Source: Bacteroidales bacterium
GTDB taxonomy: Bacteria > Bacteroidota > Bacteroidia > Bacteroidales > UBA12077
Reading direction: 5' to 3'
DNA length: 64,000 nt
Assembly: GCA_030637515.1 (NCBI GenBank)
Contig: DAOWGM010000059.1
Location: forward strand, 25,441-89,440
The notes under the pieces were generated by a model, which was not told the origin of the DNA, searched no databases, and worked only from the letters and a program-made list of their open reading frames with translations. Below, piece after piece: positions 848 through 21,003 of this stretch. How positions within the stretch are numbered: the first letter of the stretch is position 1; each line of letters opens with the position of its first letter. The translations under genes were made by a program, and so were the position numbers.

Positions 848-3800
848 ATGAGTGAAGAGATTTTAAAAGCCCTTATGCAATTGTTTGCAATAATTGCAAA
901 ACAAGACGAAGGAGTAGAATCCAGTGAAAGGGAGTTTGTTAAAAATTTCTTAACTCAACAGTTAAATAACGAAGCTGTACCTGAATACATTGCTCTTTTT
1001 GATGAAAAAGCAGGATTTACAGGTAAAAAAGTAGAAAAAGGGGAAAACGAAAAAGTAAAGTTAACATCAGTTAAAGACTCGGTAAGGATTTTAGGAATTT
1101 GTAAAAAAATTAATAAAACACTTACCCAACAACAAAAAGTTATTGTTCTCGTAAGACTTTTTGAATTGGTTAACGCCGACAGAAAGTTTTCAGAACAAAG
1201 AATGGCAATTATTAATACAGTTGCTGAAGTTTTTAAGCTTACCAAGGAAGAATTCTTAAGTATTGAAAGTTTTGTTATACACAACGAAATTTCAGAAATA
1301 GACAATGCTGACAACTTAATAATTAACGATAAAGAGAATCAATGCAAAGAAGCTAAACATGTTAAAGTTGAAGCTTTAGACGGCAATATTTTTATCCTGC
1401 AAGTTAAAAGTGTTGATCTCTATTTTATGCGTTATAATGGCAACGAAGATCTTTTTCTGAATGGGCTCCCGGTTAATAATTTAAGAATTTACCTTTTTGC
1501 AAGTGGTGGTACTATCAAGTTACAAAAAGGAAAACCTATTTATTACAGTGATATTGTTGCTCATTATTTAGCCGATAGCACATCAACAAAAATTTCTTAT
1601 ATAGCAAGAGATATTAACTTTGTTTTTCCTAATGGAGGTATTGGATTAAGAAATATTAATTTTTCTGAAGATCAAGGAAAATTAATTGGATTGATGGGTG
1701 CCAGTGGTGCAGGAAAAACTACTTTACTTAATGTTCTAACCGGATTAAATACTCCTACTTCAGGCGAAATTCTTATAAATGGGATTAATCTTCATAAAGA
1801 AAAAGAAAAGTTAGAAGGTGTAATTGGTTACATACCTCAAGACGATTTGTTAATTGAAGAACTTACCGTTTTTCAGAATCTTTACTATAATGCAAAACTC
1901 TGTTTTAATGATAAATCAGAAGAGGAAATAGTTGAGCTTGTTGATAAAACACTAACCAGCCTTGGCTTAATTGATCGTAAACATTTAAAGGTTGGATCTC
2001 CAATGAATAAGATGATTAGTGGAGGTCAGCGTAAAAGATTAAATATTGCTCTCGAACTTATTAGAGAACCTTCTATCCTTTTAGTAGATGAACCTACTTC
2101 AGGTCTTTCATCAAGAGACTCTGAGAATGTAATGGACTTGCTGCGGGAGCTTGCTCTTAAAGGAAAATTGATATTTGTTGTAATTCATCAACCATCATCA
2201 GACATATATAAAATGTTTGATAATATGATGATTCTTGATACAGGTGGCTATATGATATATTATGGGAATCCTGTTGAAGGAGTTATGTACTTTAAGCGAC
2301 TTGACGCTCAGATCAATAGCGATGTTGGGGAATGTCAAATTTGTGGTAATGTTAATCCCGAACTTATTTTTAACATTATAGAGGCAAAGGTAGTTGACGA
2401 ATTCGGAAAATACACACCAAAAAGAAAAATTTCTCCCCATAAATGGGAAGAAAACTTTAAAGAAAATGTTAAAATAGATGTAGTTGATCCAGTTCAAGAA
2501 GCTCCTCCTTCTACCTTAAGAATTCCTTCCTGGTTTAAACAGCTTAAGATTTACACAATTCGAGACTTTCTTTCGAAAATAAGCAACAAACAATATATAG
2601 CATTAAACTTACTTGAAGCTCCAATATTAGGATTCATGCTTTCGTTTATAATCAGATATATAGTTGACCCTAATTCTAATGTTTATATTTTCCGTGAAAA
2701 TGAAAATATTCAAATTTACATTTTCATGGCACTTATAGTAGTATTGTTTTTAGGGCTAACGGTTAGTGCCGAAGAAATTTTTCGTGATCGGAAAATACTA
2801 AAACGAGAAGCTTTTCTAAATTTAAGCCGGTCAAGTTATTTAATCTCTAAAATATTCATTCTTTTTACAATATCAGCTATACAGGCAATTTTATTTGTTT
2901 TAATTGCAAACGGTATTTTAGAAGTTAAAGCAATGAATTTCCAATACTGGTTTGCATTGTTTACTACAGCAGCTTTTGCAAACATGTTAGGACTAAATGT
3001 ATCTGCTTCGTTCAATTCTGCGGTAACTATATATATTCTTATCCCGCTGTTAATGATTCCAATGATGGTTTTAAGTGGGGCAATGTTTCCTTTCGATAAA
3101 ATGAATCGGTCAATTAGTAGTGTTAAGAAAGTTCCATTTATAGCAGAATTTATGCCAACAAAATGGTCTTTTGAAGCATTAATGGTAAACCAGTTTAAGA
3201 ATAACGAATTTGAAAAGAATTTTTATGAAATAGAAAAACGAGAAAGTAATGCCGATTTTAAACATGTTTATTATATTCCTGAATTAGAAAAATCTCTTAC
3301 ATATATTGAAGATAACTGGTATAAATCTCATGACAATGAAGAGGTAAAGGCAAATATAGTTAGTAGCCTGAATTTATTAAAAACTGAACTTCCTAAAGAA
3401 GAAAAAAGAACAGGAGTTATATTTGAGTCAGGTCATCAGCTAGATACAGCTTTACTTAATGATATTGTAATTGGCAAAACAAGAGAGTTTATTGAAAAAA
3501 TAGACTCTTATTATATGCTAATCTTCCAAAAAGCAAACAACGAAAAAAATAATATTATTGATCATCTTAAAAAAACAAACCCGCAATTGTACAGGGGGAA
3601 ACGTGATGCATACCATAACGAAAGCGTAGAAGATCAGGTTAAAAAAGTATTTGAAAAAAACAAGATTATCCGATACAAAGACGAATTAATACAACAGATA
3701 GATCCAATTTATAAAGATGCTGATGTTGAAGGATTCTTCAATTTTAGATCACATTTTTATGCACCACGAAAATATTTTGCAGGAAAATATCATGATACTT

Positions 3801-3916
3801 TCTGGTTTAATCTGATTTTTATATGGGTTATGACAATTTTTTTATACATTACTCTTTATTACGAATTACTGAAAAAATTACTTGATCTTCCTGAAAAGAT
3901 TAAGTTTAAAAAATAA
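848..3916 (+). CDS. Fusion ABC transporter: N-terminal TerB-like helical domain + beta-rich linker + ABCG-like ATPase + ABC-2 permease + long C-terminal extension
   Basis: Walker A 'GLMGASGAGKTTLLNVL', signature 'ISGGQRKRLNIALEL', Walker B 'ILLVDEPTSGLS'. About 6 TM segments follow the NBD (NBD-TMD order as in ABCG/ABC-2 exporters). The N-terminal approx 150 aa resemble the TerB fold ('ALMQLFAIIAKQDEGVESSEREFV'). Confidence 0.85.
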   Translation: MSEEILKALMQLFAIIAKQDEGVESSEREFVKNFLTQQLNNEAVPEYIALFDEKAGFTGKKVEKGENEKVKLTSVKDSVRILGICKKINKTLTQQQKVIVLVRLFELVNADRKFSEQRMAIINTVAEVFKLTKEEFLSIESFVIHNEISEIDNADNLIINDKENQCKEAKHVKVEALDGNIFILQVKSVDLYFMRYNGNEDLFLNGLPVNNLRIYLFASGGTIKLQKGKPIYYSDIVAHYLADSTSTKISYIARDINFVFPNGGIGLRNINFSEDQGKLIGLMGASGAGKTTLLNVLTGLNTPTSGEILINGINLHKEKEKLEGVIGYIPQDDLLIEELTVFQNLYYNAKLCFNDKSEEEIVELVDKTLTSLGLIDRKHLKVGSPMNKMISGGQRKRLNIALELIREPSILLVDEPTSGLSSRDSENVMDLLRELALKGKLIFVVIHQPSSDIYKMFDNMMILDTGGYMIYYGNPVEGVMYFKRLDAQINSDVGECQICGNVNPELIFNIIEAKVVDEFGKYTPKRKISPHKWEENFKENVKIDVVDPVQEAPPSTLRIPSWFKQLKIYTIRDFLSKISNKQYIALNLLEAPILGFMLSFIIRYIVDPNSNVYIFRENENIQIYIFMALIVVLFLGLTVSAEEIFRDRKILKREAFLNLSRSSYLISKIFILFTISAIQAILFVLIANGILEVKAMNFQYWFALFTTAAFANMLGLNVSASFNSAVTIYILIPLLMIPMMVLSGAMFPFDKMNRSISSVKKVPFIAEFMPTKWSFEALMVNQFKNNEFEKNFYEIEKRESNADFKHVYYIPELEKSLTYIEDNWYKSHDNEEVKANIVSSLNLLKTELPKEEKRTGVIFESGHQLDTALLNDIVIGKTREFIEKIDSYYMLIFQKANNEKNNIIDHLKKTNPQLYRGKRDAYHNESVEDQVKKVFEKNKIIRYKDELIQQIDPIYKDADVEGFFNFRSHFYAPRKYFAGKYHDTFWFNLIFIWVMTIFLYITLYYELLKKLLDLPEKIKFKK

Positions 3917-7785: not shown

Positions 7786-10700
7786 TTACTGTATAATAAT
7801 TTTTCTATTGATACTTACCTCTTTATTATAGAGTCGTATGAAATATATTCCTTTCGGATAATTAGCAACATTAACTTCCATCCTGCTTTTTTCACCAATT
7901 AAATTTAAGTCTCTTATAAAAACAACACTTCCTGATGCGTTTACAAGCTGTATAGTAAAGTCTCCCTCATATTCTGTTTTAACAAATAATCTATCTGAAA
8001 CAGGATTAGGATAAATACGAATTTTCTCATCAGAAAAATAATCAACAATACCATCTGGAGAATCTACTGATAAAGTACTTGAAGTAATAGGACCGCAAGT
8101 ATTATCATCAGTCACATCAACAGTATAATCTCCTGGCAATAACGAGTTAAAAACACCTGTAGAATTTGTAACACTACCTGGGTTAAGAGTGTAACTTAAA
8201 TCTCCTGTACCACCAGAAGCTGAAACTGTAACAGATCCATCTGCCACTGTTGAAGCTGAAGCATTTGTTGCACTTTCAGAATCAATTGTTATAACAGGAG
8301 GATTAGTAATATCAACACTATCTTCGTATTCACAATTATTTGCATCGCTCGCAATAAAGTAATACCTGCCTGCCGATAAGCCACTCTGATTTTTATCGGT
8401 TATCGCATGACCAGATCCGCCTGATGTTGTCCAGAAGTAATCAAAAGTAGGTGTTCCTCCTGAAACATTAAGTAATATAGCACCATCATTCTCATTATTA
8501 CAAGTAATATCATAAACATCTGGTACAATAACAATTAAGCCAGGTTGAGTAATATTATATGGTTTTGTTTGTTCACAACTATTTGCATCTGTTACGGTTA
8601 CAGTAAAAGAACCTGCAGGCATATCATCTGCAATTGCTGTAGCCTGTGATCCAGGATCATCCCACAAATATGAAAAGCCTCCGGCTCCGCCAGAAGCATT
8701 TGCTGTTACCTGGGCATCATTATTACCATAACATGTTACTCCATCATCGAGTACAATATCTATTAATATTGCTAGAGCATCAGTAATAGTTGCATTATCG
8801 GGTGTTTCACAAGAGTTTGCATCCGTAACTGTCACATTATAAGTATCGGCAATAAGACCAGCAATATCCTGAGTTTTATCTCCTGTTGACCAATTATATG
8901 TATACGGTTCAGTACCTCCGGTAACAGTTAAGTCAACATATCCCGAATTATCTCCATTACAATCTAATTGCGGAGGAACATCGGTTGATGTATTCAGAAC
9001 TAATGGTTCTATAATTGTTACAGAATCTGTTTTAGAACCACTATCGTCAGTTACAGTAACTAAATATTTCCCTGCACTCAGACCTGTTGCAGTTGGAGAA
9101 TTTAATCCTCCATCATGACTCCATACATATGATAATGTTCCTGAATATCCTAAGGATGTAATTGTAGCTTCTCCATCTCCTAAGCTATTGCATGATACAT
9201 TTTGAATATCTGATTCTTTAAAATAAATAAATAATTGAGTAGAATCAATAATAGTTAGCGAAGTATCCGCAGTACAGCCATTATCGTCCAAAACGGTAAC
9301 TGAATAAAGTCCTCCATCGGTTAAACCAGTAATATCCTCTGTACTTGCAGAGAATAAATTCGGCCCGGTCCAGGTATATGAAGCATATGATTCTGCACCT
9401 CCTGTAACCACAAGGTTAACTGCACCATCCTGTGCAACAGGGACATTATTTATGTGAGTTACTGTTGTTCCTGTGAATACAATTGTATCTGGCCCAGATA
9501 TATTAATTAATGTATCTGCCGTACATCCTTTTTCATCTGTTACAGTAACAGAATATGTACCAGTAGTCAGTCCGGTCTGATCTTCAGCAAGAAGACTAAC
9601 ACCTGAACCTCCGTTTGACTCAAACCAATAGTAAGTATTGCCACCATTACCTCCGCTAACATTAAGACCAATTGCTCCTTCAGTACTATAACTGCAAGAG
9701 GTAACTTGTGTTATGTTTGGGTTAAACAGAAATGTATCTGGTTCGGTAATATTAAATGTAACTGAATCTATGGAAGATGCATTGTCAGTTATGGTTACAG
9801 TATATTTACCAGCAGTAAGGCTTGATGCTGTTGAATCATTTAATCCTCCATCATGACTCCAGTCATAATTAATAGGAGGTACTCCAAAAAATGGTGTGAC
9901 AATGAGTTCTCCATCGTTCCCTTTACCACATGTTACATTTTGCTTTTTAGTAAAGGCAACTGTAAATGGCGGATCATATTTAGCAACTAATAAGCAAGAA
10001 TTACCTGGTATTGGATTAGTAAATAAACTATCGCCAACTTGAACTTCTGTTGCTCTAAAATAACCTGCTAAATATCCATTATTTTCAGAATCAGAATCTA
10101 TTTCAAGTCCGGAATCATTTTCAGAATCTGAGCCATCAATACTTATTGCCTTTAAATCATTTCCATCAGTATCAATGAGTCCTAAAAAGATATCGTAATC
10201 ATCAGTACCACTTGACTTCAGAGTATCTTCACCAAAGATTATTTCGTTAGAAAAGTATCCGGTACAATATAAAAATCCATTTTGATAATTAATTCCACGA
10301 GCCCAATCATGTGAGGTACTACCATAACCTTTTCCCCAAATTAAATTTCCGTTTTTATTATATTTATAAATAAAAATATCATCGCCTCCATTTGTAGTTA
10401 TTGCAGAAGAAAGCTCAGTTAAAGTTGAATCAATTTGTATGTTTGTTCCCTCGAAATAACCTGTAAAGTATATGTTGCCATAGTTATCTCTTGATAATGT
10501 ACCGGATAATGCTTCTGCATCTGTACTGGTTCTTCTGGTCCATAATCCGTTTCCAGAGATATCTGTCTTGTAAATAAATACATCGGTATAACCTGATCCT
10601 GTTGAAACTTCATCTCCAGTTTCAAAAGAACAAGTACCATCAAATACACCTAAAAAATAATAGTTTTCATTATAGGCTTTTAAATCTGTGAATTTTGAAC

Positions 10701-11343
10701 TTAAAGTAGTAGTTGGAATATCCTTTGCAAACAGCGTGTTTCCTTCATCGTCTAATTTTGTAATAAACATACCATAACTATTACTATACCTTATATCAGT
10801 GGGAAAGGTAATTGAATCACGATAAACTCCTGCAACTACCAAATCTCCGTATTTATCAATATCAATTGAAGAAACAAATTGCTTAGCTTCATTATATGCT
10901 ATCTTTTTAGCCCATATCTCATTTCCGTTTAAGTCATATTTTGCAAGAAATATATCTAAAAAACCATCTGAGTTTAATACTGTTGGGTCGAAAGTAATAT
11001 CCTGCTGAAAACCACCAACTAAATAAATATATGTTCCATCGGAAACCATACTGCTTCCAAAATCTAAACCTCCACCGCCTAATTGTTTAAACCAATCAAT
11101 TGTATAGTCTGATTTATATTTAACAATATAAGCATCTCTGGAATTAGCAATATAATCAGTTCCAACGTTAATTGTTCCTAAATAGTCGCCAAATACATAA
11201 ACATTGCCATCTATTACTTCCTGACTAAGAATTTGGTTTATGTCAGCTGTAGAACTAATATAGTTACTAAGAACAAAATCCTGACTATTTGCAGAATTAC
11301 ATACTAACACGCTTAATATCAGTAAATTTAAAAAATTTCTCAT
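7786..11343 (-). CDS. Large secreted protein: SBBP-like beta-propeller repeats + multiple SprB repeats + T9SS type-A C-terminal sorting domain
   Basis: Signal peptide 'MRNFLNLLILSVLVCNSANS|Q'. Repeated 'D.F..KY...GN..W' units in the N-terminal approx 460 aa. At least 6 'C.G..DG.......GG...Y.Y.W' SprB repeats. C-terminus 'IRIYPNPVSDRLFV...GIYFIRL'. Confidence 0.85.
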   Translation of the reverse strand: MRNFLNLLILSVLVCNSANSQDFVLSNYISSTADINQILSQEVIDGNVYVFGDYLGTINVGTDYIANSRDAYIVKYKSDYTIDWFKQLGGGGLDFGSSMVSDGTYIYLVGGFQQDITFDPTVLNSDGFLDIFLAKYDLNGNEIWAKKIAYNEAKQFVSSIDIDKYGDLVVAGVYRDSITFPTDIRYSNSYGMFITKLDDEGNTLFAKDIPTTTLSSKFTDLKAYNENYYFLGVFDGTCSFETGDEVSTGSGYTDVFIYKTDISGNGLWTRRTSTDAEALSGTLSRDNYGNIYFTGYFEGTNIQIDSTLTELSSAITTNGGDDIFIYKYNKNGNLIWGKGYGSTSHDWARGINYQNGFLYCTGYFSNEIIFGEDTLKSSGTDDYDIFLGLIDTDGNDLKAISIDGSDSENDSGLEIDSDSENNGYLAGYFRATEVQVGDSLFTNPIPGNSCLLVAKYDPPFTVAFTKKQNVTCGKGNDGELIVTPFFGVPPINYDWSHDGGLNDSTASSLTAGKYTVTITDNASSIDSVTFNITEPDTFLFNPNITQVTSCSYSTEGAIGLNVSGGNGGNTYYWFESNGGSGVSLLAEDQTGLTTGTYSVTVTDEKGCTADTLINISGPDTIVFTGTTVTHINNVPVAQDGAVNLVVTGGAESYASYTWTGPNLFSASTEDITGLTDGGLYSVTVLDDNGCTADTSLTIIDSTQLFIYFKESDIQNVSCNSLGDGEATITSLGYSGTLSYVWSHDGGLNSPTATGLSAGKYLVTVTDDSGSKTDSVTIIEPLVLNTSTDVPPQLDCNGDNSGYVDLTVTGGTEPYTYNWSTGDKTQDIAGLIADTYNVTVTDANSCETPDNATITDALAILIDIVLDDGVTCYGNNDAQVTANASGGAGGFSYLWDDPGSQATAIADDMPAGSFTVTVTDANSCEQTKPYNITQPGLIVIVPDVYDITCNNENDGAILLNVSGGTPTFDYFWTTSGGSGHAITDKNQSGLSAGRYYFIASDANNCEYEDSVDITNPPVITIDSESATNASASTVADGSVTVSASGGTGDLSYTLNPGSVTNSTGVFNSLLPGDYTVDVTDDNTCGPITSSTLSVDSPDGIVDYFSDEKIRIYPNPVSDRLFVKTEYEGDFTIQLVNASGSVVFIRDLNLIGEKSRMEVNVANYPKGIYFIRLYNKEVSINRKIIIQ

Positions 11344-11353
11344 GGCTTTAGTT

Positions 11354-11506
11354 TTATGAAACTTGGTATGAAGTAGCTTCTTTTGTTACATCATGGGTCT
11401 CTCCGCCTTCAGTCTTTCCCTTGTCCAGACAAATTAACTTTGGAGTCTCCCAATTTAGTTTTTCAGAACAACTATTAGTCTCTATTTTATTCCCCTTTTT
11501 ATCCAT
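11354..11506 (-). CDS. Candidate lasso-peptide precursor (50 aa, not in ORF track)
   Basis: Hand translation: MDKKGNKIETNSCSEKLNWETPKLICLDKGKTEGGETHDVTKEATSYQVS*. Same strand as and downstream of B2. 'WETPKL' resembles the YxxPxL RRE-binding leader motif, there is a Thr-x-Gly junction (T32-E33-G34), Asp/Glu acceptors follow, and the C-terminal Ser is as in kinase-associated lasso precursors. Confidence 0.6.
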   Translation of the reverse strand: MDKKGNKIETNSCSEKLNWETPKLICLDKGKTEGGETHDVTKEATSYQVS

Positions 11507-11646
11507 ATCAACACATTTGTTTTTGATCTCAATAATTATGCAATTTTACTAATATTCAAGTAAATTTATTACGGTTTTATTGATTCTACAAGTTTTTGTT
11601 ATAAAAAATAGTTTTCAATACATTCAATTATAATAATTTTTTTCTT

Positions 11647-12084
11647 TTAGCTGTAAAATCCAACAACAGAAAATTTTTCATATCCTTTCTTTCCACTTAT
11701 AAAATCACTGCCAATTTTAAGCCAGGCATGTGCAATCAGTTTACTATTTTTATCTTTTGACACACCAAGATAAATTGTCGATTTTATCTGGTGTTTTTCC
11801 AATACTTTTTTCACTGCAATTGCCTCTTCAAAACATTTTACTTTCCATGGCAATCTTTTTTTTAGTCTTCGTTTATTTTTTCTCAAGACATCTATTAATT
11901 GAAGCTGATTCTCATTAACATCGACTTCAATCTCTTTTTTAAATTCCCCAAGAACAGAACTAAACCATTTTAAAGGAATAATTCGAACAAGAACAAAAGC
12001 ATAAATCAACCAAAAAAATGTTTGGTTTAAAATTATACGTTCTTTTTTATCTATCTTATAATATTTCTTTAACAGTTTGAACAT
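11647..12084 (-). CDS. Lasso peptide biosynthesis B2 protein (transglutaminase-like leader peptidase)
   Basis: 145 aa. 'WKVKCFEEAIAVKKVL' (catalytic Cys), 'LIAHAWLKIGSDFISG' (His/Asp). The N-terminal hydrophobic helix is typical of the family. Confidence 0.85.
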   Translation of the reverse strand: MFKLLKKYYKIDKKERIILNQTFFWLIYAFVLVRIIPLKWFSSVLGEFKKEIEVDVNENQLQLIDVLRKNKRRLKKRLPWKVKCFEEAIAVKKVLEKHQIKSTIYLGVSKDKNSKLIAHAWLKIGSDFISGKKGYEKFSVVGFYS

Positions 12085-12117
12085 ATTTGATGTTCATATT
12101 TTTAAACGTTTTAAGAG

Positions 12118-12408
12118 CTAATATGTTACAACAATCAACTCTTTTTCAATTAAATCCATAATAAATGGAGCAATGTCTTTAAAACATTTGTTTTTATCAA
12201 TATTGTAATTTGCTGTAATCATTTCAATCAGAGTAACTATTTTAATAGGATTTTTAATATTATCCCAAATAAAAGTTCCGGTTTTACCTAAACCATAATA
12301 TTCTCCTTTTTCGATACTCATCATTACTTTTTCACCATCCAGATCGCTGGTAAGAACATCGTTTTTTCTTTGTATAATTGTATCTAATGTAATTTCTATT
12401 TTAGCCAT
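12118..12408 (-). CDS. PqqD-family lasso peptide B1 protein (RiPP recognition element)
   Basis: 'LDGEKVMMSIEKGEYYGLGKTGTFIWDNI....VTLIEMITANYNID' is a PqqD-like pattern. I prefer the ATG at 12408 (MAKIEITLD), 1 nt after the upstream TAG, over the track start at 12438. Confidence 0.8.
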   Translation of the reverse strand: MAKIEITLDTIIQRKNDVLTSDLDGEKVMMSIEKGEYYGLGKTGTFIWDNIKNPIKIVTLIEMITANYNIDKNKCFKDIAPFIMDLIEKELIVVTY

Positions 12409-12409
12409 A

Positions 12410-13276
12410 CTAATAAATAGGTTTATTGTTAGTATCAATATATTCGTATTTCATCATAACAGATTTATGTTTTGAAATAACTTCTTCAGTTGTTTTTTGA
12501 TTTAAACAATTTTTCCAATCACCCGTTTTCCCCTTTCTAAAAAATGACTTTGATTTAATCATCTTTTCTTTAAATCCGCCTTCTTTCTCCTGATTTGCAA
12601 GAACTGAAAAATCACTTTTTTTGATAGCTTCATGAATTTCTGAATCTGGCTTTTCAATTCCAATAAATTTTACTGCATCTTTAAAACTATCAAATGTGTT
12701 GCTTATCATATCTTCATAACGAATAAAATGAACTGGGATATTTTTTTGCTCTGTCCAGCTTTTTACATGATCTGACCAAGATCCTAAAATTTGCCGGAGT
12801 TGATTTTGAAGCTTGTCATTCTGATTACAAAAAGCAAAATTTGAATCATTCAATGTTTTAACCATTTTCTCAACTGGTTTGGCACTATGATAAGCAAAAG
12901 AAACCAAAACATCCAGTGGATTTCTGATAATATAAACCACTCCCCTTGTTATTTCTGATGGAAAAAGAGGTTCACCTCTTTCTGTTGCATAGTACTTATC
13001 GTGAACTTTCTTAAACAACAATTCATTGCTTTCAGCAGATTGCATTCGATACACTTCCGGTCGTAAAGAATCAATTTCATTAAAAGTTAAATCAGATGAC
13101 GAAAGACCAGTATATTCATCAAATATTTTTCTGGAACTGGAAATTGAAGTGTCAGCCAGATCGTTAATATTAGCAGGGACATCCGAATCGTTTAACAAAT
13201 TCGTAAGAAATACTCTAAACCAGGTATTCCCTGACTTTGGATAACTTGCAAGCCATATAATGTTTTTTTTATACAT
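12410..13276 (-). CDS. PAPS-dependent sulfotransferase (Sulfotransfer_1 type)
   Basis: 5'-PSB motif 'SYPKSGNTWFRVFL' and 3'-PB motif 'VVYIIRNPLDVLVSFAYH'. C-terminal 'FFRKGKTGDWKN' matches the family GxxGxW region. Confidence 0.85.
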   Translation of the reverse strand: MYKKNIIWLASYPKSGNTWFRVFLTNLLNDSDVPANINDLADTSISSSRKIFDEYTGLSSSDLTFNEIDSLRPEVYRMQSAESNELLFKKVHDKYYATERGEPLFPSEITRGVVYIIRNPLDVLVSFAYHSAKPVEKMVKTLNDSNFAFCNQNDKLQNQLRQILGSWSDHVKSWTEQKNIPVHFIRYEDMISNTFDSFKDAVKFIGIEKPDSEIHEAIKKSDFSVLANQEKEGGFKEKMIKSKSFFRKGKTGDWKNCLNQKTTEEVISKHKSVMMKYEYIDTNNKPIY

Positions 13277-14165
13277 CCAGATTTAGCTTTTTCAATAAAA
13301 AATCTCCAAATTCATTTAGCAATAATGGTGATTGAGGCCTGGTAACCTTATAAACCTTTATTTCAGGTAAAAGTTTATTTAAAACCTGAAAATGATCCTG
13401 TTGTTTATCGAGGCCTTGAACAAATCTGTAACGATATGTATTGTTTTTAACTGTATTAAATTTTTTAATTCCGGATAACTCTTCAAATTCAAATCCAGGT
13501 GAATTTTTAGTGTTTATAATGATAATATTTTTTAAAGGAAGAGGCTCATTATAATAGTTTTCATTAACGGGTAACTGAAATTTCATCATGTCAGGCCTTA
13601 TCTCTTCCAAAGATTCATCGTGCATTTTTAATTTTTGCAAAACATCGTTCCATAATTTCATTTTGGGAAATCCGGGAACAACTTCAAGATTATGATTTAC
13701 AACACTAATATCGTCAGCTAAAACCTGAAAAGCCTGACTAACAAAATAAGCTGCAATAGAAGACTTTCCTACTCCACTTAATCCTGTAAAGACGGTTGCC
13801 GATTTACCAAATTTTACGGCACTTCCATGAACCGGTAATAAACCTCGCTGAATAAATAATGCGCCAAAAGCCGAACCTAAAAGAAATAAACGAACTTCTT
13901 TATCAATTTCCTTTTTTAAAAGCTTTACACTTATTTGGTTTCCATTAGCGACATAGTACTTAGCTATATTATTAACTTCCAGTAAGAATTCATTTTTAGC
14001 TGCCTGATACATTACACCTTTATTAATTATTTTATCAAGCTTTGTGGGAGCTTCCCCAATCTTTATCTCCACATCAGGTGTACCCCCAGAAACCAATAAT
14101 TCTGGAATTTCAAAATCAGATTTAATAATTAATCCGAATGCCTTATATGTAAAGGTTTTTACCAT
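13269..14165 (-). CDS. HPr-kinase-like (HprK-related) lasso precursor kinase
   Basis: 298 aa. P-loop 'FTGLSGVGKSSIAAYF' in the C-terminal-domain position. The stop overlaps the sulfotransferase ATG (ATGTATAA). Confidence 0.75.
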   Translation of the reverse strand: MVKTFTYKAFGLIIKSDFEIPELLVSGGTPDVEIKIGEAPTKLDKIINKGVMYQAAKNEFLLEVNNIAKYYVANGNQISVKLLKKEIDKEVRLFLLGSAFGALFIQRGLLPVHGSAVKFGKSATVFTGLSGVGKSSIAAYFVSQAFQVLADDISVVNHNLEVVPGFPKMKLWNDVLQKLKMHDESLEEIRPDMMKFQLPVNENYYNEPLPLKNIIIINTKNSPGFEFEELSGIKKFNTVKNNTYRYRFVQGLDKQQDHFQVLNKLLPEIKVYKVTRPQSPLLLNEFGDFLLKKLNLDV

Positions 14166-14183
14166 TTCTTTTCTTGCTTAGCA

Positions 14184-14191
14184 CAAATTTA
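14184..14191 (-). promoter_or_regulatory. -7 box (TAAATTTG on minus strand) for the kinase-sulfotransferase-B1-B2 operon
   Basis: Plus strand CAAATTTA. 18 nt before the kinase ATG (14165). Confidence 0.5.
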
Positions 14192-14258
14192 CACGAAAAT
14201 GCCTTAAAAGTAAGTATTATTGGAGTTTTTGCCTGTAGAATTATCCTTTTCAATTGCT

Positions 14259-14266
14259 TATATTTG
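14259..14266 (+). promoter_or_regulatory. -7 box (TATATTTG) for the cyclase-nucleotidyltransferase operon
   Basis: Perfect TAnnTTTG, 15 nt before the ATG at 14282. It lies inside the track's longer ORF, which argues for the shorter start. Confidence 0.5.
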
Positions 14267-14281
14267 TTAAAAGTCTTTTTT

Positions 14282-16165
14282 ATGAACTCCATTTTCGGAA
14301 GAATAAATACTAGTAAAAATCAAATTGATCAATCTCTTTTTAACAATAGTATTGATGTATTATCAGTATTCCCTGATGTCAAAAAAGAAATCAGTATAGA
14401 TAATAATACAGCTTTAGGAGAGGTTCTTTTTCCTCCATTTATACAAGCAGGTATTCAACATTCATCGAAAAGAATTGTTTCTGATTCAAAGCTTTACAAC
14501 TTACCAGATCTTGTGCAAAAGTTAAATATAAATGAAAATCAAGCCGAAGAAGGTTTTGTTATTTTAAAAGCCTATGAAAAGTGGGGCAATGATTGTGTTA
14601 AATATTTTATTGGAGATTTTGCTTTTGCAATTTGGGACACGAATACGGAAGAACTCTTTTGTGCACGTGATCATTTGGGAGTAAAGCCTTTTCATTATTT
14701 TTTTAATGATGAAACATTTGTTTTTAGTTCTGATATCAGTGCTGTTCTCGCGCAAAAGGATCTTCAGTTTAGTATTGATGAACAATACATTGCAGATACT
14801 ATCTCAATTATAAGTTCGAAAAAAATCAGAACAAATTATAATGAGATTAAGAAGTTGCCTCCTGCCTCTTACTTATTTTTAAAAAATGAGAACTTAGAAA
14901 TTAAACAATACTGGGAATTACAAACTCAAAAAACCATTCAGAAAAAAGACTCGGAAATTATTGAAGATTTTAAAACTTTACTTTTAAAAGCGGTAAAGTG
15001 CAGATTAAATAATGATAATTCAACCGGGACAGAGCTTAGTGGAGGTATTGACTCTTCGTGCATTACTGCAATATCTTCCAAGTTTGCTCAAATAAAAACT
15101 TTTTCTCATGTTTTACCTGATCATTTATTGGAAAAAATACATCCTTTTAAAGATGAGCGTGATTATATAAATCTTCTCGATGATTATTGTAACATTCAGG
15201 ATCGATATTTTATAACTTCAGAAAACAAATCTTTACATCGTGCAATTGAAGAAAATGTAATTGATTATAAAGGAATTTCTCAACAGAACTTTGGAGTTTT
15301 TTCTGATTGTTTGTATCAACAAGCAATGAAAGGAAATGTTTCTGTATTGCTTTCAGGATTTGGTGGAGATGAAGTAGTTACTTCAAAATCTAAAGGGTAT
15401 CTTTCTGAGTTAGCTTCAAATAGACAGTGGAAAGAACTAAAAAAAGATTTGAAGAATCAAAAGCCCAATAAATACAGATATTTAAGAACTCTATTAAAGT
15501 ATTTACTAAAGTTTAAAGCTCCGTTTATTTACAAGTTTATTTCTTTAAGAAAATATAAAAGACCGTTTTGGATAGATAAATATGATAATTTGGCAATAAG
15601 CAAAGAGTTCTCCCAAGAATTTAATATTAAAGAACGATACTTATTGTATTACAAAAAACGAAACTGTTCATCTCTGCAAAAAAATGCTATTGAAAGAATT
15701 ACACATCCGCATGTTTCGCAACGACTTGAATACTGTTCGTTAATTGCACGAAAGTACGGAATCGAATATCGATATCCTTTGCTTGACATACGTTTAATTG
15801 AGTGTTATCTGGCAATGCCTACGAGATTAAAAGCACAAAACGGAATCGGAAGATATGCAATCAGAAAAGCAATTGAGGGAATTGTGCCTGAAAAAATCCA
15901 ATGGAGAAATGATAAAAGCGGAGCTACCATTCCAAGCATTTTTATGAGAATGATAAATGATAAAGAACAAATATCAGAACTTATAAATCGGGCAAAGAAA
16001 ATTGATATTATTAAAAAATACATCGATCTTGAAAAATTTGAAAGATGGTTTCATAAACTCTGTCAAAGATCTGAAAACAAACAAAAAAATATTAATCCGG
16101 CTGCTTTTTATAATTACTTAAAGCTAATTATATTTATAGAACAAAATCCTAATCTTTTTAAATGA
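14282..16165 (+). CDS. Lasso peptide isopeptide-bond-forming cyclase (asparagine synthetase B homologue)
   Basis: PP-loop 'TELSGGIDSSCITA'. AsnB-like N-domain 'GDFAFAIWDTNTEELFCARDHLGVKPFHYF'. The N-terminus MNSIFG lacks the Cys2 glutaminase nucleophile. Confidence 0.85.
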   Translation: MNSIFGRINTSKNQIDQSLFNNSIDVLSVFPDVKKEISIDNNTALGEVLFPPFIQAGIQHSSKRIVSDSKLYNLPDLVQKLNINENQAEEGFVILKAYEKWGNDCVKYFIGDFAFAIWDTNTEELFCARDHLGVKPFHYFFNDETFVFSSDISAVLAQKDLQFSIDEQYIADTISIISSKKIRTNYNEIKKLPPASYLFLKNENLEIKQYWELQTQKTIQKKDSEIIEDFKTLLLKAVKCRLNNDNSTGTELSGGIDSSCITAISSKFAQIKTFSHVLPDHLLEKIHPFKDERDYINLLDDYCNIQDRYFITSENKSLHRAIEENVIDYKGISQQNFGVFSDCLYQQAMKGNVSVLLSGFGGDEVVTSKSKGYLSELASNRQWKELKKDLKNQKPNKYRYLRTLLKYLLKFKAPFIYKFISLRKYKRPFWIDKYDNLAISKEFSQEFNIKERYLLYYKKRNCSSLQKNAIERITHPHVSQRLEYCSLIARKYGIEYRYPLLDIRLIECYLAMPTRLKAQNGIGRYAIRKAIEGIVPEKIQWRNDKSGATIPSIFMRMINDKEQISELINRAKKIDIIKKYIDLEKFERWFHKLCQRSENKQKNINPAAFYNYLKLIIFIEQNPNLFK

Positions 16166-17328
16166 TTGATTTTAAAAATCATATTGAACAAAAATTCACT
16201 GATGAGTTAAAACTTCTGATTTTTCTTTCTCAGGGTGATTTGAATGATATCTCTTTCTTAGGAAATTTAGACAAGATTGATTGGGATGAATTTGTAGAAT
16301 TGACAATAAAACATAGGTTAGTATCGCATGTGTTACAGCATTCGGAATTTTTAGCTGAGAAATTTCCAATCCCCACTTACGAAAAATTAATTGACACCAG
16401 ATTAAAACACTCCAAAACATCACTTAATTATGCAATTCACGCTATTCGGATATTTCAAGAATTTAAAGAAAAAAGTATTCCTCATATATTTTTTAAAGGG
16501 CCATTACTTTCTCTTGAATTATATAATGATATTGGATACAGAAATTTTGGTGATATTGATGTATTGGTTGAAAAGAAAGATGCTGAGAAAGCAAAAAATC
16601 TACTTGAAGACTTAGGCTTTACTTGTATTTATCCTAAAATTAAACTTACTGAAAAACAAAAAGAAGTAAATTACAGTATTAGCCATCATTATCAGTTTAA
16701 ACATCCTGTACAAACTATTCATATTGAGCTACACTGGAATATTACAAATCCGAAAACTTTTTTTGGAATAGAATCAAAAGATATTATTTCAAACTCCATT
16801 AATTTAAAAGTGTCGAACTATGAATTGCCTTATATTTCAAAAATTGAAAATATCGTTTTTCAGGCTGCACACGGATCTATTCATCAATGGTATAGATTGT
16901 TCTGGATAAAAGATTTTTCGAAACTGCTCACAATAGTTCATTCTGAAGATCTGAAAAAAGCGTATGATTTATCAAAGAAACTTAAGCTGCAAAACTGTTT
17001 TATTCAAGCATGCTTATTATCAAATTTGCTTTACAAAACTGAAGTTCCAGATTTTGAGAATTTTAAGATTAAGAAGAATCTGAATAAGATTCCATTAAGC
17101 TCAATCACTGGAAAAGATTTAAGCAAGCAAGGATTAAAAGGAAAAATTAAATTCGTTTTATACAGAATCCGTTTAAAACCCGATTTCAATTATTATTTCG
17201 AATTAATTTACAGGCTAAGAACTCATTTGTCGGATTGGGAATTAATAAAGCTTCCAAAAAATCTATTCTTTTTATATTATGCTTTAAGACCTTTCTTACT
17301 GATTTATAAATTTCTATTTAGAAAATGA
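16162..17328 (+). CDS. NTP_transf_5 (PF14907-like) nucleotidyltransferase-fold tailoring enzyme
   Basis: 'GYRNFGDIDVLVEKKD' nucleotidyltransferase signature and 'IHIELHWNI'. ATGA overlap with the cyclase stop. Confidence 0.7.
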   Translation: MIDFKNHIEQKFTDELKLLIFLSQGDLNDISFLGNLDKIDWDEFVELTIKHRLVSHVLQHSEFLAEKFPIPTYEKLIDTRLKHSKTSLNYAIHAIRIFQEFKEKSIPHIFFKGPLLSLELYNDIGYRNFGDIDVLVEKKDAEKAKNLLEDLGFTCIYPKIKLTEKQKEVNYSISHHYQFKHPVQTIHIELHWNITNPKTFFGIESKDIISNSINLKVSNYELPYISKIENIVFQAAHGSIHQWYRLFWIKDFSKLLTIVHSEDLKKAYDLSKKLKLQNCFIQACLLSNLLYKTEVPDFENFKIKKNLNKIPLSSITGKDLSKQGLKGKIKFVLYRIRLKPDFNYYFELIYRLRTHLSDWELIKLPKNLFFLYYALRPFLLIYKFLFRK

Positions 17329-17943
17329 AGTATCTGAAAAATCAATTGAGCTAAATTGAAATCCTTTCGCCGAATAAAATTTTAGTACTTCAGGCAAAAC
17401 ATATTTGAGATTTTTTTCTGCTTTTATAGTATCATGAAAAACAATAATAGATCCTGGGTTTACTGAATTTATTGTTTTTTTCAGGCATGTTTCTTTCTTT
17501 AAGCTATTGTTATAATCTCTTGTAAGAACATCCCACATTACTATTTTAAACTCTTTTTTTAGTTGTCTTATTTGTGATGGTTTTATTCTACCATATGGAG
17601 GTCGAAAAAGATTAGAATTAATATACTCTGAAGCTTTTCTAACATTCTGAAAATACTTTTCATTACTCGTACGCCATCCCTTAATATGAGAATAGCCATG
17701 ATTGCCTACAGAATGCCCTTCGGCAATTATTTGCTTGTAAAGTTTTTGATTATTTTCAACGTTCTTCCCTATACAAAAGAAAGTGGCTTTGGCATTATAT
17801 TCTTTTAAAACAGAAATAACCCATTCGGTTACTCCCAATGTTGGACCATCGTCAAATGTTAAAAAAAGCTCCTTATTCCGATCAGGGAAACTCCAGATTA
17901 AATCTTTAAAAAATCTTGCAACTATATTTTCTTTCTTTATCAC
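17314..17943 (-). CDS. Polysaccharide deacetylase (NodB/CE4 family)
   Basis: 'LFLTFDDGP', 'GHSVGNHGYSH', 'FRPPYG' CE4 motifs. Confidence 0.85.
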   Translation of the reverse strand: MIKKENIVARFFKDLIWSFPDRNKELFLTFDDGPTLGVTEWVISVLKEYNAKATFFCIGKNVENNQKLYKQIIAEGHSVGNHGYSHIKGWRTSNEKYFQNVRKASEYINSNLFRPPYGRIKPSQIRQLKKEFKIVMWDVLTRDYNNSLKKETCLKKTINSVNPGSIIVFHDTIKAEKNLKYVLPEVLKFYSAKGFQFSSIDFSDTSFSK

Positions 17944-17946
17944 CTT

Positions 17947-20900
17947 TTAATTAAACTGCTCAATATATTGCATAAACTTTTGCTCAATCTGACTATTTAA
18001 CTCCTGCTGATTATTACTTGCAGTAATTCTGTAAAGCTCCTGCAAAATATAAAGATCCATTTGTTTTTCCATCGTAATATCCTTCGTTCCAGATGCAAGC
18101 TGAGGTTTAAGATTAAAATAATAATCAAGCTCAACAAACATTTTGCTGCTAAGTCTTTCTACCAAAGAGTTTGCCTTTTCTGTTGCACCTGCATGATAAT
18201 ACGCTGATATAACAGAAAGTAAAGTACTATTGAATGGTATCTTATGATCAGGAAATAATTCCATACAACGATCAAGGACTAATAAAGCAGAATCGTTCTT
18301 TCCTTCTTCAATTAATTTCTCAGCTAATCTTCCAAAACTACTTCGTAGGTTTGAAAACATCCTGGTATTATTTTCATCAAAATAGATGTCGTTTTCTTCA
18401 ATTCCACCCCAACGAAATTTATTCATAATATTATCGTACATCAACTCAGAATCAACTTCACCGCTATGAAATCGCTCCTTCTTTGCTTCAACCGGAACCA
18501 ACTGATATGTTAATCCATCAACTTTAAAATATTTTTGCAGATTAAAATACTTCGTACTGGTTACAGTCATTGCCCAATAAACAGGTCTCTCCCAATTGTT
18601 TGTTGCTAAAATATCGAGCAACATTAATCCGTCTTTATATAAGTATCCTTGATTAAAATTCCATTGCATCTCGTCAACAATTCGATCTCTGTATTTTTCA
18701 TCTACAATACCTTTTTCAATAACATTATCAGGATCAATCTTTAATTTATATTTCTTAGATGGAATATAATTTATCATTTCGTTTGCTACAAAAGGAGATT
18801 TAATCTTTGTTTTAGCATCATCGCTCGCAATAAAATCAACCACATCTCTTACATTAACTGCTTGCCCAACCCTGTCGTAGATCGGTAAAATATCACGAAC
18901 TCCTTTATGATATTTATCGTGAGTTAAAGAGAATGGCATTCGTTCAGCTTCATATGATTTACGACTCATTTGATCAATATACCATGCAGCTCTTAAATAA
19001 CTTAAATTACAAACTTTTATATCTGTTCTAATTCCTTCAACTTCCTGAGCATACCAAAGTGGGAATGTATCATTATCACCATTTGTAAATAAAATCGCAT
19101 TCTTTTTACACGAATTAAGATAATTATATGCAAGATCACGAGCTGTATATCTTCCTGATCTGTCATGATCGTCCCAGTTTTCAGAAGCCATAATTCCAGG
19201 AACTAAAACCAAAGTAATTACTGTCACCAATATTGCAGAAATTGACTTTGGAGCTTTTTTGCTTAAATAGCTAATAAGTCCTGCTACTCCTAATCCAATC
19301 CAAATTGAGAAAGCATAATAAGAACCTGCAAAAGCATAATCCCTTTCACGAGGCTGTATAGGATACTGATTTAAATAAACAACTATTGCTATACCTGTTA
19401 ATACATATAACATTAATACAACCGCGAAGTCTTGTTTGTTTTGTTTATAATGAAACATTAATCCGACAAGTCCGAGTAAAAGCGGCAACATAAAATATTT
19501 GTTTCTGCCAGGATTATTTTTAAGATGCTCCGGAACCTGATCCTGATCACCCAATCTTGCATTATCTACAAATGGAATTCCACTTATCCAATTTCCTTTC
19601 AACACATTACCATGACCTTGAATATCATTTTGTCGTCCTGAGAAATTCCACATAAAATACCTGAAATACATATGACCAATCTGGTATTTTACAAAAAATG
19701 CAATATTATTTGCAAAAGAAGGATTAACTCTTTTTTCAACTTTGCCGGCTCCATTTCTTACAGAAATCTTCTTGTCCGATATATTAACCCATTTATTATA
19801 TTCATTAATGTGTTTCTTATCGCTGCTATACATTCTCGGGAAAAGTGATGTAAAACGCGGATCAAATTCTACTTCAATTTTATAATCAGCAATCTCATAT
19901 CTTCCATCTTTTTTAATATAAACAGGTTTTGTTTTTTTATTACTTATAGCGGGAGCATCAAAAGACTGACCGTAAAATAATGGTCTGTCGCCATATTGTT
20001 CGCGATTCAAATAATATAATAAATCAAATACATTGTCCGGATTGTTTTGATCCATAGGAGGATCAGCAGCAGAACGAATAATAACCATTGCAAATGAAGA
20101 ATAACCAATTAGAATTACGGTTAATCCCATAATTACAGTGTTTAAAACAACTTTCCCTTTGCGATGTGTATATTTTATTCCCCATACAATTAATCCAATA
20201 ACAAGGAAAACATAAAATAATGCTCCTGAATTATATGGCAAACCAAATCCGTTTACAAACAATAAATCAAACCACGATGCAACTTTCAGAAATCCTGGAA
20301 TAATAACATACATAATAGATGCAAGAAGTATTACAGAAATTACTAAAGCATAGAAAATACCTTTTTTCGTTACTTCGTATCTTTTAAAATAATAAACAAA
20401 AGCAATAGCAGGAATTGCTAATAAGTTCAATAAGTGAACTCCAATAGATAATCCAAGTAAATATGCTATAAAAATTAACCATCGGTTCGCATATTTGTTA
20501 TCAGATTCGTTTTCCCATTTTAAAATTGCCCAAAATACAACAGCGGTAAATAACGAAGAGGTTGCATAAACCTCAGCCTCAACAGCTGAAAACCAAAAAG
20601 AATCAGAAAATGTGTATGCTAAAGCACCAACAATTCCACTTCCTATAATTGTAATTATATTTCCAATTGAAAAATTATCTTCTTTAATAAAAATCTTTTT
20701 TGCAAAGTGCGTAATTGTCCAGAACAAAAACAAGATTGTAAAAGCACTCGACATTGCAGAAAGAATATTAACCATTTTTGCTGCATTTTCAGGTCCTGAA
20801 GAAAACAATGTAAAGATTCTTCCTAAAATCATAAAAAATGGTGCTCCCGGTGGATGTCCAACTTCAAGTCTGTATGCCGATGCAATAAATTCACCACAGT

Positions 20901-21003
20901 CCCAAAAGCTTGCAGTTGGCTCAATAGTTAACATATAAACTATTGCTGCAATTAAAAAAACTATCCATCCAATGAGGTTATTATAAAATCGGTATTGTTT
21001 CAT
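17947..21003 (-). CDS. DUF2723 family membrane protein (GT-C-like, putative glycosyltransferase)
   Basis: 1018 aa. N-terminus 'TASFWDCGEFIASAYRLEVGHPPGAPFF', many TM segments, TPR-like soluble C-terminus. Confidence 0.8.
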   Translation of the reverse strand: MKQYRFYNNLIGWIVFLIAAIVYMLTIEPTASFWDCGEFIASAYRLEVGHPPGAPFFMILGRIFTLFSSGPENAAKMVNILSAMSSAFTILFLFWTITHFAKKIFIKEDNFSIGNIITIIGSGIVGALAYTFSDSFWFSAVEAEVYATSSLFTAVVFWAILKWENESDNKYANRWLIFIAYLLGLSIGVHLLNLLAIPAIAFVYYFKRYEVTKKGIFYALVISVILLASIMYVIIPGFLKVASWFDLLFVNGFGLPYNSGALFYVFLVIGLIVWGIKYTHRKGKVVLNTVIMGLTVILIGYSSFAMVIIRSAADPPMDQNNPDNVFDLLYYLNREQYGDRPLFYGQSFDAPAISNKKTKPVYIKKDGRYEIADYKIEVEFDPRFTSLFPRMYSSDKKHINEYNKWVNISDKKISVRNGAGKVEKRVNPSFANNIAFFVKYQIGHMYFRYFMWNFSGRQNDIQGHGNVLKGNWISGIPFVDNARLGDQDQVPEHLKNNPGRNKYFMLPLLLGLVGLMFHYKQNKQDFAVVLMLYVLTGIAIVVYLNQYPIQPRERDYAFAGSYYAFSIWIGLGVAGLISYLSKKAPKSISAILVTVITLVLVPGIMASENWDDHDRSGRYTARDLAYNYLNSCKKNAILFTNGDNDTFPLWYAQEVEGIRTDIKVCNLSYLRAAWYIDQMSRKSYEAERMPFSLTHDKYHKGVRDILPIYDRVGQAVNVRDVVDFIASDDAKTKIKSPFVANEMINYIPSKKYKLKIDPDNVIEKGIVDEKYRDRIVDEMQWNFNQGYLYKDGLMLLDILATNNWERPVYWAMTVTSTKYFNLQKYFKVDGLTYQLVPVEAKKERFHSGEVDSELMYDNIMNKFRWGGIEENDIYFDENNTRMFSNLRSSFGRLAEKLIEEGKNDSALLVLDRCMELFPDHKIPFNSTLLSVISAYYHAGATEKANSLVERLSSKMFVELDYYFNLKPQLASGTKDITMEKQMDLYILQELYRITASNNQQELNSQIEQKFMQYIEQFN

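Follow-up and report, generated by a model that had tools for sequence, protein, structure and literature searches.

This study concerns a short open reading frame (ORF) in a 64,000-nucleotide stretch of DNA from an uncultured Bacteroidales bacterium (contig DAOWGM010000059.1; the whole stretch is called the window below). The ORF lies on the minus strand at 11354-11506, with its ATG at 11506-11504 and its TAA at 11356-11354, and its translation reads MDKKGNKIETNSCSEKLNWETPKLICLDKGKTEGGETHDVTKEATSYQVS followed by the stop. It is very probably a real and conserved gene encoding the precursor (A) of a paeninodin-type lasso peptide. The kind of system, paeninodin-type and kinase-tailored, is already known. 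What is new lies in the particulars, namely a Bacteroidales lineage, a precursor below the curated model, a cluster without an exporter, an obligatory sulfotransferase and a conflict between two rules for reading precursors.

A sequence-only reading of the window had singled out the same ORF as the likely lasso precursor, and this proposal is supported by conserved counterparts, by selection on the leader, by the motifs and by an alignment to paeninodin. Retranslation matched its hand translation exactly, and the ORF does share the strand of the B1 and B2 genes, 140 nt downstream of the end of the B2 ORF at 11647. The ORF had been called unannotated; this is right for the ORF track then used but not for GenBank, where the identical protein is listed as 'MAG: hypothetical protein KAR57_01785 [Bacteroidales bacterium]' (MAG, metagenome-assembled genome).

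Homologues were collected by a word-indexed search (14), an exhaustive profile search over 1.84 billion representatives (32) and a profile search of 90%-identity clusters (154, with 120 of them listed). Our conservation counts cover 140 sequences, and the family thus has at least 140 members, found in Bacteroidales metagenomes and typically 45-60 aa long. The pattern W-x2-P-x-L-x2-L-x4-T-x-x-G is present in all 140, a C-terminal Ser in 139, and the core is unique in 137. Conservation of W-x-x-P-x-L, of the Thr and of the C-terminal Ser had been suggested as a check on the ORF, and all three prove invariant or nearly so. Conservation extends to the M-[DE]-x-K context of the start and to the stop right after the Ser. 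Within the leader, the N-terminal 15 residues or so are variable and rich in Lys and Glu while residues 16-33 are conserved; among 46 representatives W19 is invariant and P22 and L24 are kept in at least 90%, so that the earlier view of WETPKL as a YxxPxL-like motif can be retained. The sole non-Ser ending among the 140 belongs to P0122 (66 aa), the core of which runs about 16 residues further (…IDSITLILPEP), and this extension suggests that a stop codon was lost or that the assembly is wrong.

The leader is under purifying selection: in its conserved 20-codon block, pairs drawn from five loci differ by 5-12 synonymous and 1-3 non-synonymous codons. Compared with six related loci, the window shows 52-90% identity in the enzymes and 50-79% in the leader against 24-45% in the core. 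The combination of a leader that is conserved and a core that evolves fast is typical of precursors from which ribosomally made and post-translationally modified peptides arise.

The position of the gene is conserved as well. The neighbours of the peptide are visible in 10 other loci (L001, L003, L004, L006, L007 and L011-L015), which record titles or names assign to Bacteroidales or Bacteroidota MAGs. The order kinase-sulfotransferase-B1-B2-peptide is observed in all 10, where the counterparts that the earlier reading had proposed to seek beside homologous clusters thus occupy the same place, and a divergent cyclase with a nucleoside triphosphate (NTP) transferase is found in 9. In L011, a 4.6-Mb contig, the far flank is unlike that of the other loci and the peptide gene still follows B2. 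The features of the gene and of its upstream spacer are the following.

11354..11506, minus strand: precursor gene, lasA-type, 50 codons plus TAA (translation, 140 homologues, constant position in syntenic loci, mostly synonymous leader changes)
11408..11506, minus strand: predicted leader, residues 1-33 if Thr stands at -2 (alignments, hhalign to paeninodin leaders); in the alternative register residues 1-34, reaching 11405 on the same strand
11435..11452, minus strand: W19-E-T-P22-K-L24, Trp counterpart of YxxPxL, the motif to which the precursor recognition element (RRE) binds (conservation; aligned to Y5-S-K-P8-S-L10 of paeninodin)
11402..11413, minus strand: junction T32-E33-G34-G35 (Thr and second Gly invariant; T-M-[A/G]-G in the paeninodin family)
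11357..11407, minus strand: predicted core GGETHDVTKEATSYQVS, 17 aa, or 16 aa with a cut after G34 (hypervariable among homologues)
11378..11380, minus strand: E43, predicted isopeptide acceptor (kept in at least 90% of the family; aligned to the ring Asp9 of paeninodin)
11366..11368, minus strand: Y47, aromatic residue 4 positions past E43, possibly a steric plug, a site of O-sulfation or both
11357..11359, minus strand: S50, C-terminal Ser, predicted phosphosite of the HprK-like kinase (terminal Ser in 139 of 140 homologues; analogy to the paeninodin and pseudomycoidin kinases)
11536..11594, minus strand: conserved boxes AACTTGTAGAA (11584-11594), AATAAATTTACTTGA (11556-11570) and AAAATTGCATAA (11536-11547) in the B2-A spacer (alignment of 5 loci)

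Relationship to paeninodin

The paeninodin precursor is MKKQYSKPSLEVLDVHQTM|AGPGTSTPDAFQPDPDEDVHYDS, with a core beginning AGPGTSTPD, and its close relatives all read T-M-[A/G]-G-P-G...T-P-D. When the Bacteroidales family was compared with the paeninodin-family precursors using hhalign, the two aligned with a probability of 86% (E 5e-6). In the leader, W19, P22, L24, T32 and E33 of the window peptide fall on Y5, P8, L10, T18 (-2) and M19 (-1) of paeninodin. In the core, G34, G35 and E43 fall on A1, G2 and D9, and V40 appears as a one-residue insertion.

The likeness to PadeA and to the curated family NF033524 thus extends over the leader (W/Y-x-x-P-x-L-x-x-L-D-x3-T, the T standing 13 positions after the W/Y), the junction (T-x-[A/G]-G) and the final Ser, and also over the cluster, with its split B1/B2, its cyclase and its HprK-like kinase. 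The C-terminal Ser of the family, with this kinase encoded nearby, agrees with the paeninodin-type assignment proposed earlier, although the database scores of the kinase are weak. On the other hand, the leader has 33-34 aa here against 19 in paeninodin and the core 16-17 against 21-26; the acceptor is a Glu, 11 instead of 10 residues from the Thr. Most family members have their acceptor at core position 9 as paeninodin does, whereas V40 shifts E43 to 10. The host is a member of the Bacteroidales and not a Firmicute (Paenibacillus/Bacillus), the cluster has no PadeD-type ATP-binding cassette (ABC) exporter, and a sulfotransferase and an NTP transferase are always present in the Bacteroidales clusters.

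The curated models reflect this distance. NF033524 finds a distant family member, P0046, at E 6.9e-4 with 19.3 bits, below its cutoff of 27, while paeninodin itself scores 57.1 bits. The window peptide is best described as paeninodin-related but outside the family by the curated criterion, because NF033524 misses it.

Enzymes of the cluster and proposed pathway

Six genes, four on the strand of the precursor and two divergent from it, form the predicted lasso cluster.

11647..12084, minus strand: B2, predicted leader peptidase, transglutaminase-like Cys protease (NF033537, 66.5 bits, cutoff 33; PF13471)
12118..12408, minus strand: B1, PqqD-like RRE protein (NF033536, 95.5 bits, cutoff 80; PF05402)
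12410..13276, minus strand: predicted 3'-phosphoadenosine 5'-phosphosulfate (PAPS)-type sulfotransferase, Sulfotransfer_1 (PF00685, E 7.7e-30)
13269..14165, minus strand: putative HprK-like peptide kinase (PF07475, E 5e-5, below the gathering score; profile against HprK of the PDB, E 0.006)
14282..16165, plus strand: predicted lasso cyclase, Asn-synthetase-like (NF033535, 371 bits, cutoff 525; PF00733, GATase_7)
16162..17328, plus strand: NTP_transf_5 nucleotidyltransferase-family protein (PF14907, E 2.7e-46)

Two starts differ from those of the ORF list. B1 most likely begins at ATG 12408 (96 aa), the listed TTG at 12438 being too far upstream for homologues of 93-96 aa, and the cyclase most likely begins at ATG 14282 (627 aa; homologues 621-629 aa) and not at the listed ORF start, 14174. 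The cyclase gene lies 2.7 kb from the precursor ORF, and the PF14907 gene is translationally coupled to it. The earlier statement that no other precursor-like small ORF exists in the cluster holds for all ORFs of at least 20 aa within or between its genes. A 49-aa ORF at 14143-14292 (minus strand) and a 22-aa ORF at 11628-11696 (minus strand) were considered and rejected; they have no leader motif, no Thr-Gly junction and no acidic core, and they also overlap coding or extension regions.

In the kinase, the match to HprK of the PDB spans the Walker-A/ADD segment. H113-G114, G128-x-S-G-V-G-K-S135 and D151-D152 are invariant among 6 orthologues, and the segment shared with HprK reads H-G-x13-G-x-S-G-V-G-K-S...A-D-D, its Asp pair matching the metal-binding pair of the pseudomycoidin kinase PsmK, which has been mutated in that enzyme (PMC6993621). 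A single-sequence AlphaFold2 model of the kinase was unusable (predicted local distance difference test 33.6). When the genome collection was scanned with the kinase, two close relatives were the only matches, one of them cut at a contig end, and no distant clusters came up.

The sulfotransferase contains YPKSGNTW and RKGKTGDW, which we take to be its PAPS-binding motifs. Its nearest solved structures are the cytosolic SULTs and Teg12, Teg14 and StaL (E 1e-12 to 3e-15). Unlike these enzymes, the substrates of which are glycopeptide aglycones or small phenols, the window protein would act on a residue of the peptide that can only be guessed. Lasso clusters of Firmicutes are reported to include genes for a sulfotransferase, uncharacterised there, and for a nucleotidyltransferase (PMC8498205). 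The junction between the sulfotransferase and B1 genes, which are adjacent in the window, is variable: a PDDEXK_3 (nuclease-like) gene is inserted in L015 (5681-6052), and gaps of 230-340 nt are seen in L011 (8766-9105) and L014 (5948-6178).

All steps of the pathway that we propose are drawn from homology. The PqqD-like B1 would bind the leader at W19-x-x-P22-x-L24-x-x-L27, B2 would cleave near the invariant T32-E33-G34-G35 junction, and the cyclase would activate the side chain of Glu43 and join it to the new N-terminal Gly. The HprK-like kinase would phosphorylate the side chain of Ser50, probably on the linear precursor as with paeninodin. It is indeed the C-terminal Ser that the kinases of paeninodin and pseudomycoidin are reported to phosphorylate (PMC8498205, PMC6993621), and lasso kinases are described as working on this residue in linear precursors (PMC8498205). 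The NTP_transf_5 protein may add a hexose to the Ser50 phosphate, and the sulfotransferase would add a sulfate to a hydroxyl, most plausibly that of Tyr47. This Tyr is kept in at least 90% of the first 15 homologues, and most others have an aromatic residue at the same spacing.

A parallel can be drawn with pseudomycoidin of Bacillus pseudomycoides (PsmA/K/N), which has a ring between Ala1 and Asp9 confirmed by nuclear magnetic resonance and a C-terminal phospho-Ser; hexosylation of this phospho-Ser requires PsmN, an uncharacterised NTP transferase (PMC6993621). The two systems share a kinase gene and an NTP-transferase-family gene, and the T-x-A-G junction of pseudomycoidin is akin to the T-x-x-G found here. 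The pseudomycoidin cluster differs by the lack of a sulfotransferase and the presence of a D transporter, and its product by a 9-residue ring. It is possible, by analogy, that the NTP_transf_5 protein is the counterpart of PsmN. The tail of the window peptide beyond Glu43, ATSYQVS, has 7 residues and a single aromatic, and the predicted modifications of this tail may hold the peptide threaded, a role that the authors of the pseudomycoidin work propose for C-terminal modifications (PMC6993621).

Cleavage register and ring size

The earlier reading had combined a Thr-Glu-Gly junction, with Thr at -2, and several Asp/Glu acceptors after the Gly residues; only a part of this stands. Thr32 is invariant (140/140) and E43 is conserved, but E36 and D39 are not, and the one acceptor that is conserved falls on position 10 when Thr stands at -2. 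In this register the core has acids at positions 3, 6 and 10 only, Glu43 being the last; when the core starts at Gly35, Glu43 is at position 9 and Thr32 at -3. E36 and D39 are dismissed as ring acceptors: at 3 and 6, or at 2 and 5 when counted from Gly35, they are too near the N-terminus to close a lasso ring. Judging from the sequence of the window peptide, a Thr at -2 and a ring of 7-9 residues cannot both hold. The RODEO pattern, which we take to be T-x-(6-8 residues)-[DE], does not fit at T32, in agreement with this problem.

T-x-x-G is found in all 140 homologues, with G (124), N (7), S (6), T (2) or D (1) at T+2. With Thr at -2, an acid is present at 7-9 in 123 of the 140 and only at 10 in the remaining 17, the window included. 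The ring-size distribution does not discriminate, as it covers the mode plus or minus 1 in both registers.

We adopt, with about even confidence, a cut E33|G34 that leaves Thr at -2 and releases the core GGETHDVTKEATSYQVS, closed by a 10-residue Gly34-Glu43 macrolactam. The W-to-T spacing is 13 here, as it is in paeninodin and in 24 of 28 predicted Firmicutes precursors. A cut anchored on the Thr is further suggested because, among these 28, the Asp keeps a distance of 10 or 11 from the Thr even when the Gly is at T+2 or T+4. Some cores of the family, such as GGPGIGTES, closely resemble the GGPGIATPD of the paeninodin family. Moreover, according to a review (PMC8498205), a 10-residue macrolactam can be closed by a lasso cyclase, that of fusilassin/fuscanodin; as described there, it is not a natural product but was made in vitro from an artificial substrate variant with the actinobacterial enzymes of Thermobifida fusca.

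Precursors with their acid only at position 10 stand beside intact clusters in at least 4 loci (the window, L011, L014 and L015). The idea that they form one clade was rejected, their loci being scattered in the cyclase and B2 trees, and the nearest cyclase (L006, 75% identity) and nearest B2 (84% identity) of the window serve a precursor with its acid at 9. We infer from this scatter, from the intact clusters and from the partner of the nearest cyclase that the acceptor spacing shifts often without large changes of the enzymes, and that the '10-only' precursors are not decayed.

The same precursor could also be cut by B2 at G34|G35, which we rate somewhat below an even chance; Gly35 would then be core residue 1, Thr32 would stand at -3, and the ring would have 9 residues here and 7, 8 or 9 in the family. 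Other outcomes at the junction are improbable. Counting from the invariant Gly puts an Asp or Glu at 7-9 in 140/140, and T+3 is always Gly, in contrast to the variable T+2, as expected if T+3 forms the ring. All characterised natural rings covered by reviews have 7-9 residues (PMC8498205, PMC6993621), which together with the 140/140 count speaks against a 10-residue ring, and an in-silico study of kinase-linked Firmicutes systems chose Thr at -3 too (PMC7533575). However, the G-start logic of that study, applied to a paeninodin-type entry of B. cereus (MTMA|GPG...), gives a core that contradicts the experimental Ala1 start of paeninodin and pseudomycoidin (PMC7533575). The two solved T-x-x-G relatives are cut after T+1 (Ala1-Gly2...Asp9 in paeninodin, Ala1-Asp9 in pseudomycoidin), and the profile alignment sets Gly35 on core position 2. 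In characterised systems, moreover, Thr at -2 is the conserved determinant of the protease, as Pan and colleagues are said to have found in 2012.

Even when cleaved and cyclised, the product could be an unthreaded branched cycle, or be threaded only by means of a bulky phosphate, hexose or sulfate on its 7-residue tail, which we consider unlikely. This would agree with the shortness of the tail and its one aromatic, with the three tailoring enzymes encoded in the cluster and with the behaviour of pseudomycoidin, the purified wild-type form of which, with its 9-residue ring, behaves as a branched cycle, the unmodified peptide not being stably threaded (PMC6993621). But the conserved Tyr 4 residues past the acceptor could act as a plug, and several characterised lasso peptides of 15 residues with 7-residue tails are threaded.

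Returning to the cut two residues past the Thr, the complete proposal, in which a 10-residue Gly34-Glu43 ring would be the first natural one of more than 9 residues and would be threaded, if at all, by virtue of the sulfate and the phosphate or phospho-hexose of the tail, is tentative and falls a little short of even likelihood. The computed masses are 1807.82 Da (linear) and 1789.81 Da (cyclised) for the 17-residue core, and 1750.80 Da and 1732.79 Da for the 16-residue core.

The question of the register is wider than the window, because the rumen Firmicutes precursors (PMC7533575, Table 3) show the same conflict: with Thr at -2, the conserved Asp of most of them comes to core position 10. 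These predicted LasA peptides resemble the Bacteroidales family in their W-x-x-P...T-x-x-G, their Ser-rich C-terminal region and their linkage to kinases. They differ in being in-silico predictions with cores of 21-44 aa and Asp instead of Glu as acceptors, and in clusters that include ABC transporters and two-component regulators.

Surrounding genes

Downstream, 10 nt past the precursor stop, begins the gene of an SprB-repeat protein of 1185 aa with a C-terminal sorting domain of the type IX secretion system (T9SS) (7786-11343, minus strand). In the related loci listed (L001, L004, L006, L007, L011, L013, L014 and L015) an SprB gene follows the precursor by 7-43 nt and encodes 1108-1444 aa where complete; L011, with its different far flank, is no exception. 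The scan of 11200-14400 found no terminator-like site, and none lies between the precursor and the SprB gene, which may be co-transcribed with it. Upstream of the precursor, the conserved boxes of the B2-A spacer could be a dedicated promoter. A sigma-70 scan of 11200-14400, which was not designed for Bacteroidota promoters, found promoter-like sites no commoner than in shuffles. The precursor region does not correspond to a known RNA element, since an Rfam scan of 11000-12200 returned only a chance-level snoRNA match (E 0.14).

On the other side, a TMEM260-like (protein O-mannosyltransferase-like) membrane protein of 1018 aa and a polysaccharide deacetylase are encoded at 17314-21003 (minus strand), and in most of the related loci seen their counterparts stand beside the pair of cyclase and NTP-transferase genes. 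The ABC protein encoded closest to the cluster, at a distance of some 7 kb (848-3916, plus strand), is a TerB-ABC_tran-ABC2_membrane fusion of 1022 aa. It is syntenic in most related loci and does not appear in the region of L011 shown downstream of the SprB gene.

Alternative explanations for the ORF

Two explanations would deprive the ORF of any role in lasso peptide synthesis. Length by itself is weak evidence for a precursor ORF: an ATG ORF of at least 50 aa arises in 337 of 5000 shuffles (6.7%) of the 303-nt intergenic region, which has 28% GC. A chance open frame in such AT-rich DNA is nevertheless refuted by the comparative data and has next to no probability left, given 140 homologous peptides, a leader in which synonymous substitutions dominate, and the conserved start context and stop. 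One could also imagine that the ORF encodes a small conserved protein, or an upstream peptide, with no part in lasso synthesis; it might for example be transcribed together with the SprB T9SS gene and serve as a regulatory or leader peptide. The SprB gene, 7-46 nt past the ORF in every locus and with no terminator-like site in between, would agree with this, as would the failure of the curated family models to match the window peptide, and all loci being syntenic, the linkage to B2 could be inherited and not functional. Yet such a peptide would leave unexplained a paeninodin-like leader in the same register, an invariant T-x-x-G with a C-terminal Ser beside an HprK-like kinase, and the pattern of a conserved leader and hypervariable core; the cluster itself would be left without a substrate. 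We hold this explanation to be very unlikely.

Several points nonetheless weigh against the assignment of the ORF as a lasso precursor. The window peptide gives no match to NF033524 at E <= 10 (cutoff 27 bits), and no other curated family model matches it. The invariance of the leader motif is partly circular, because the retrieval profile itself encodes this motif; the comparison of codons is free of this circularity. Co-location is weaker evidence than the count of loci suggests, because all of them belong to one extensively syntenic lineage. As for the enzymes, the kinase is assigned by motifs and weak profile matches, the cyclase stays under the NCBIfam lasso-cyclase cutoff (371 against 525 bits), and no lasso-type (PadeD-type) ABC exporter is found among the genes of 7786-21003. 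For the window peptide as for every member of its family, the whole case is one of sequence comparison.

Conclusions

At face value the result is routine and supplies a lasso cluster with the A gene that it lacked. It also defines a Bacteroidales precursor family of 140 or more peptides, in which the leader is invariant and nearly every core is unique; pipelines annotate this family as hypothetical because it falls below the curated paeninodin model. We know of no lasso peptide isolated from Bacteroidota, and our literature searches found none. In these clusters the kinase is always accompanied by a sulfotransferase of the PAPS type and by a protein of the NTP-transferase family, which suggests a lasso peptide with three kinds of tailoring, by phosphate, sugar and sulfate. 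Sulfation has not yet been demonstrated for lasso peptides, and no sulfated one was found in the literature searches.

The conflict of rules met in the window peptide concerns 17 of the 140 family members and many predicted Firmicutes precursors. Either answer, natural 10-residue rings or a protease register that shifts, alters the rules by which precursors are predicted. If true, a 10-residue ring would extend to about 12% of the Bacteroidales family and to most of the kinase-linked predictions from rumen Firmicutes, and standard mining rules, which expect the acceptor at 7-9, would mis-split or reject such precursors.

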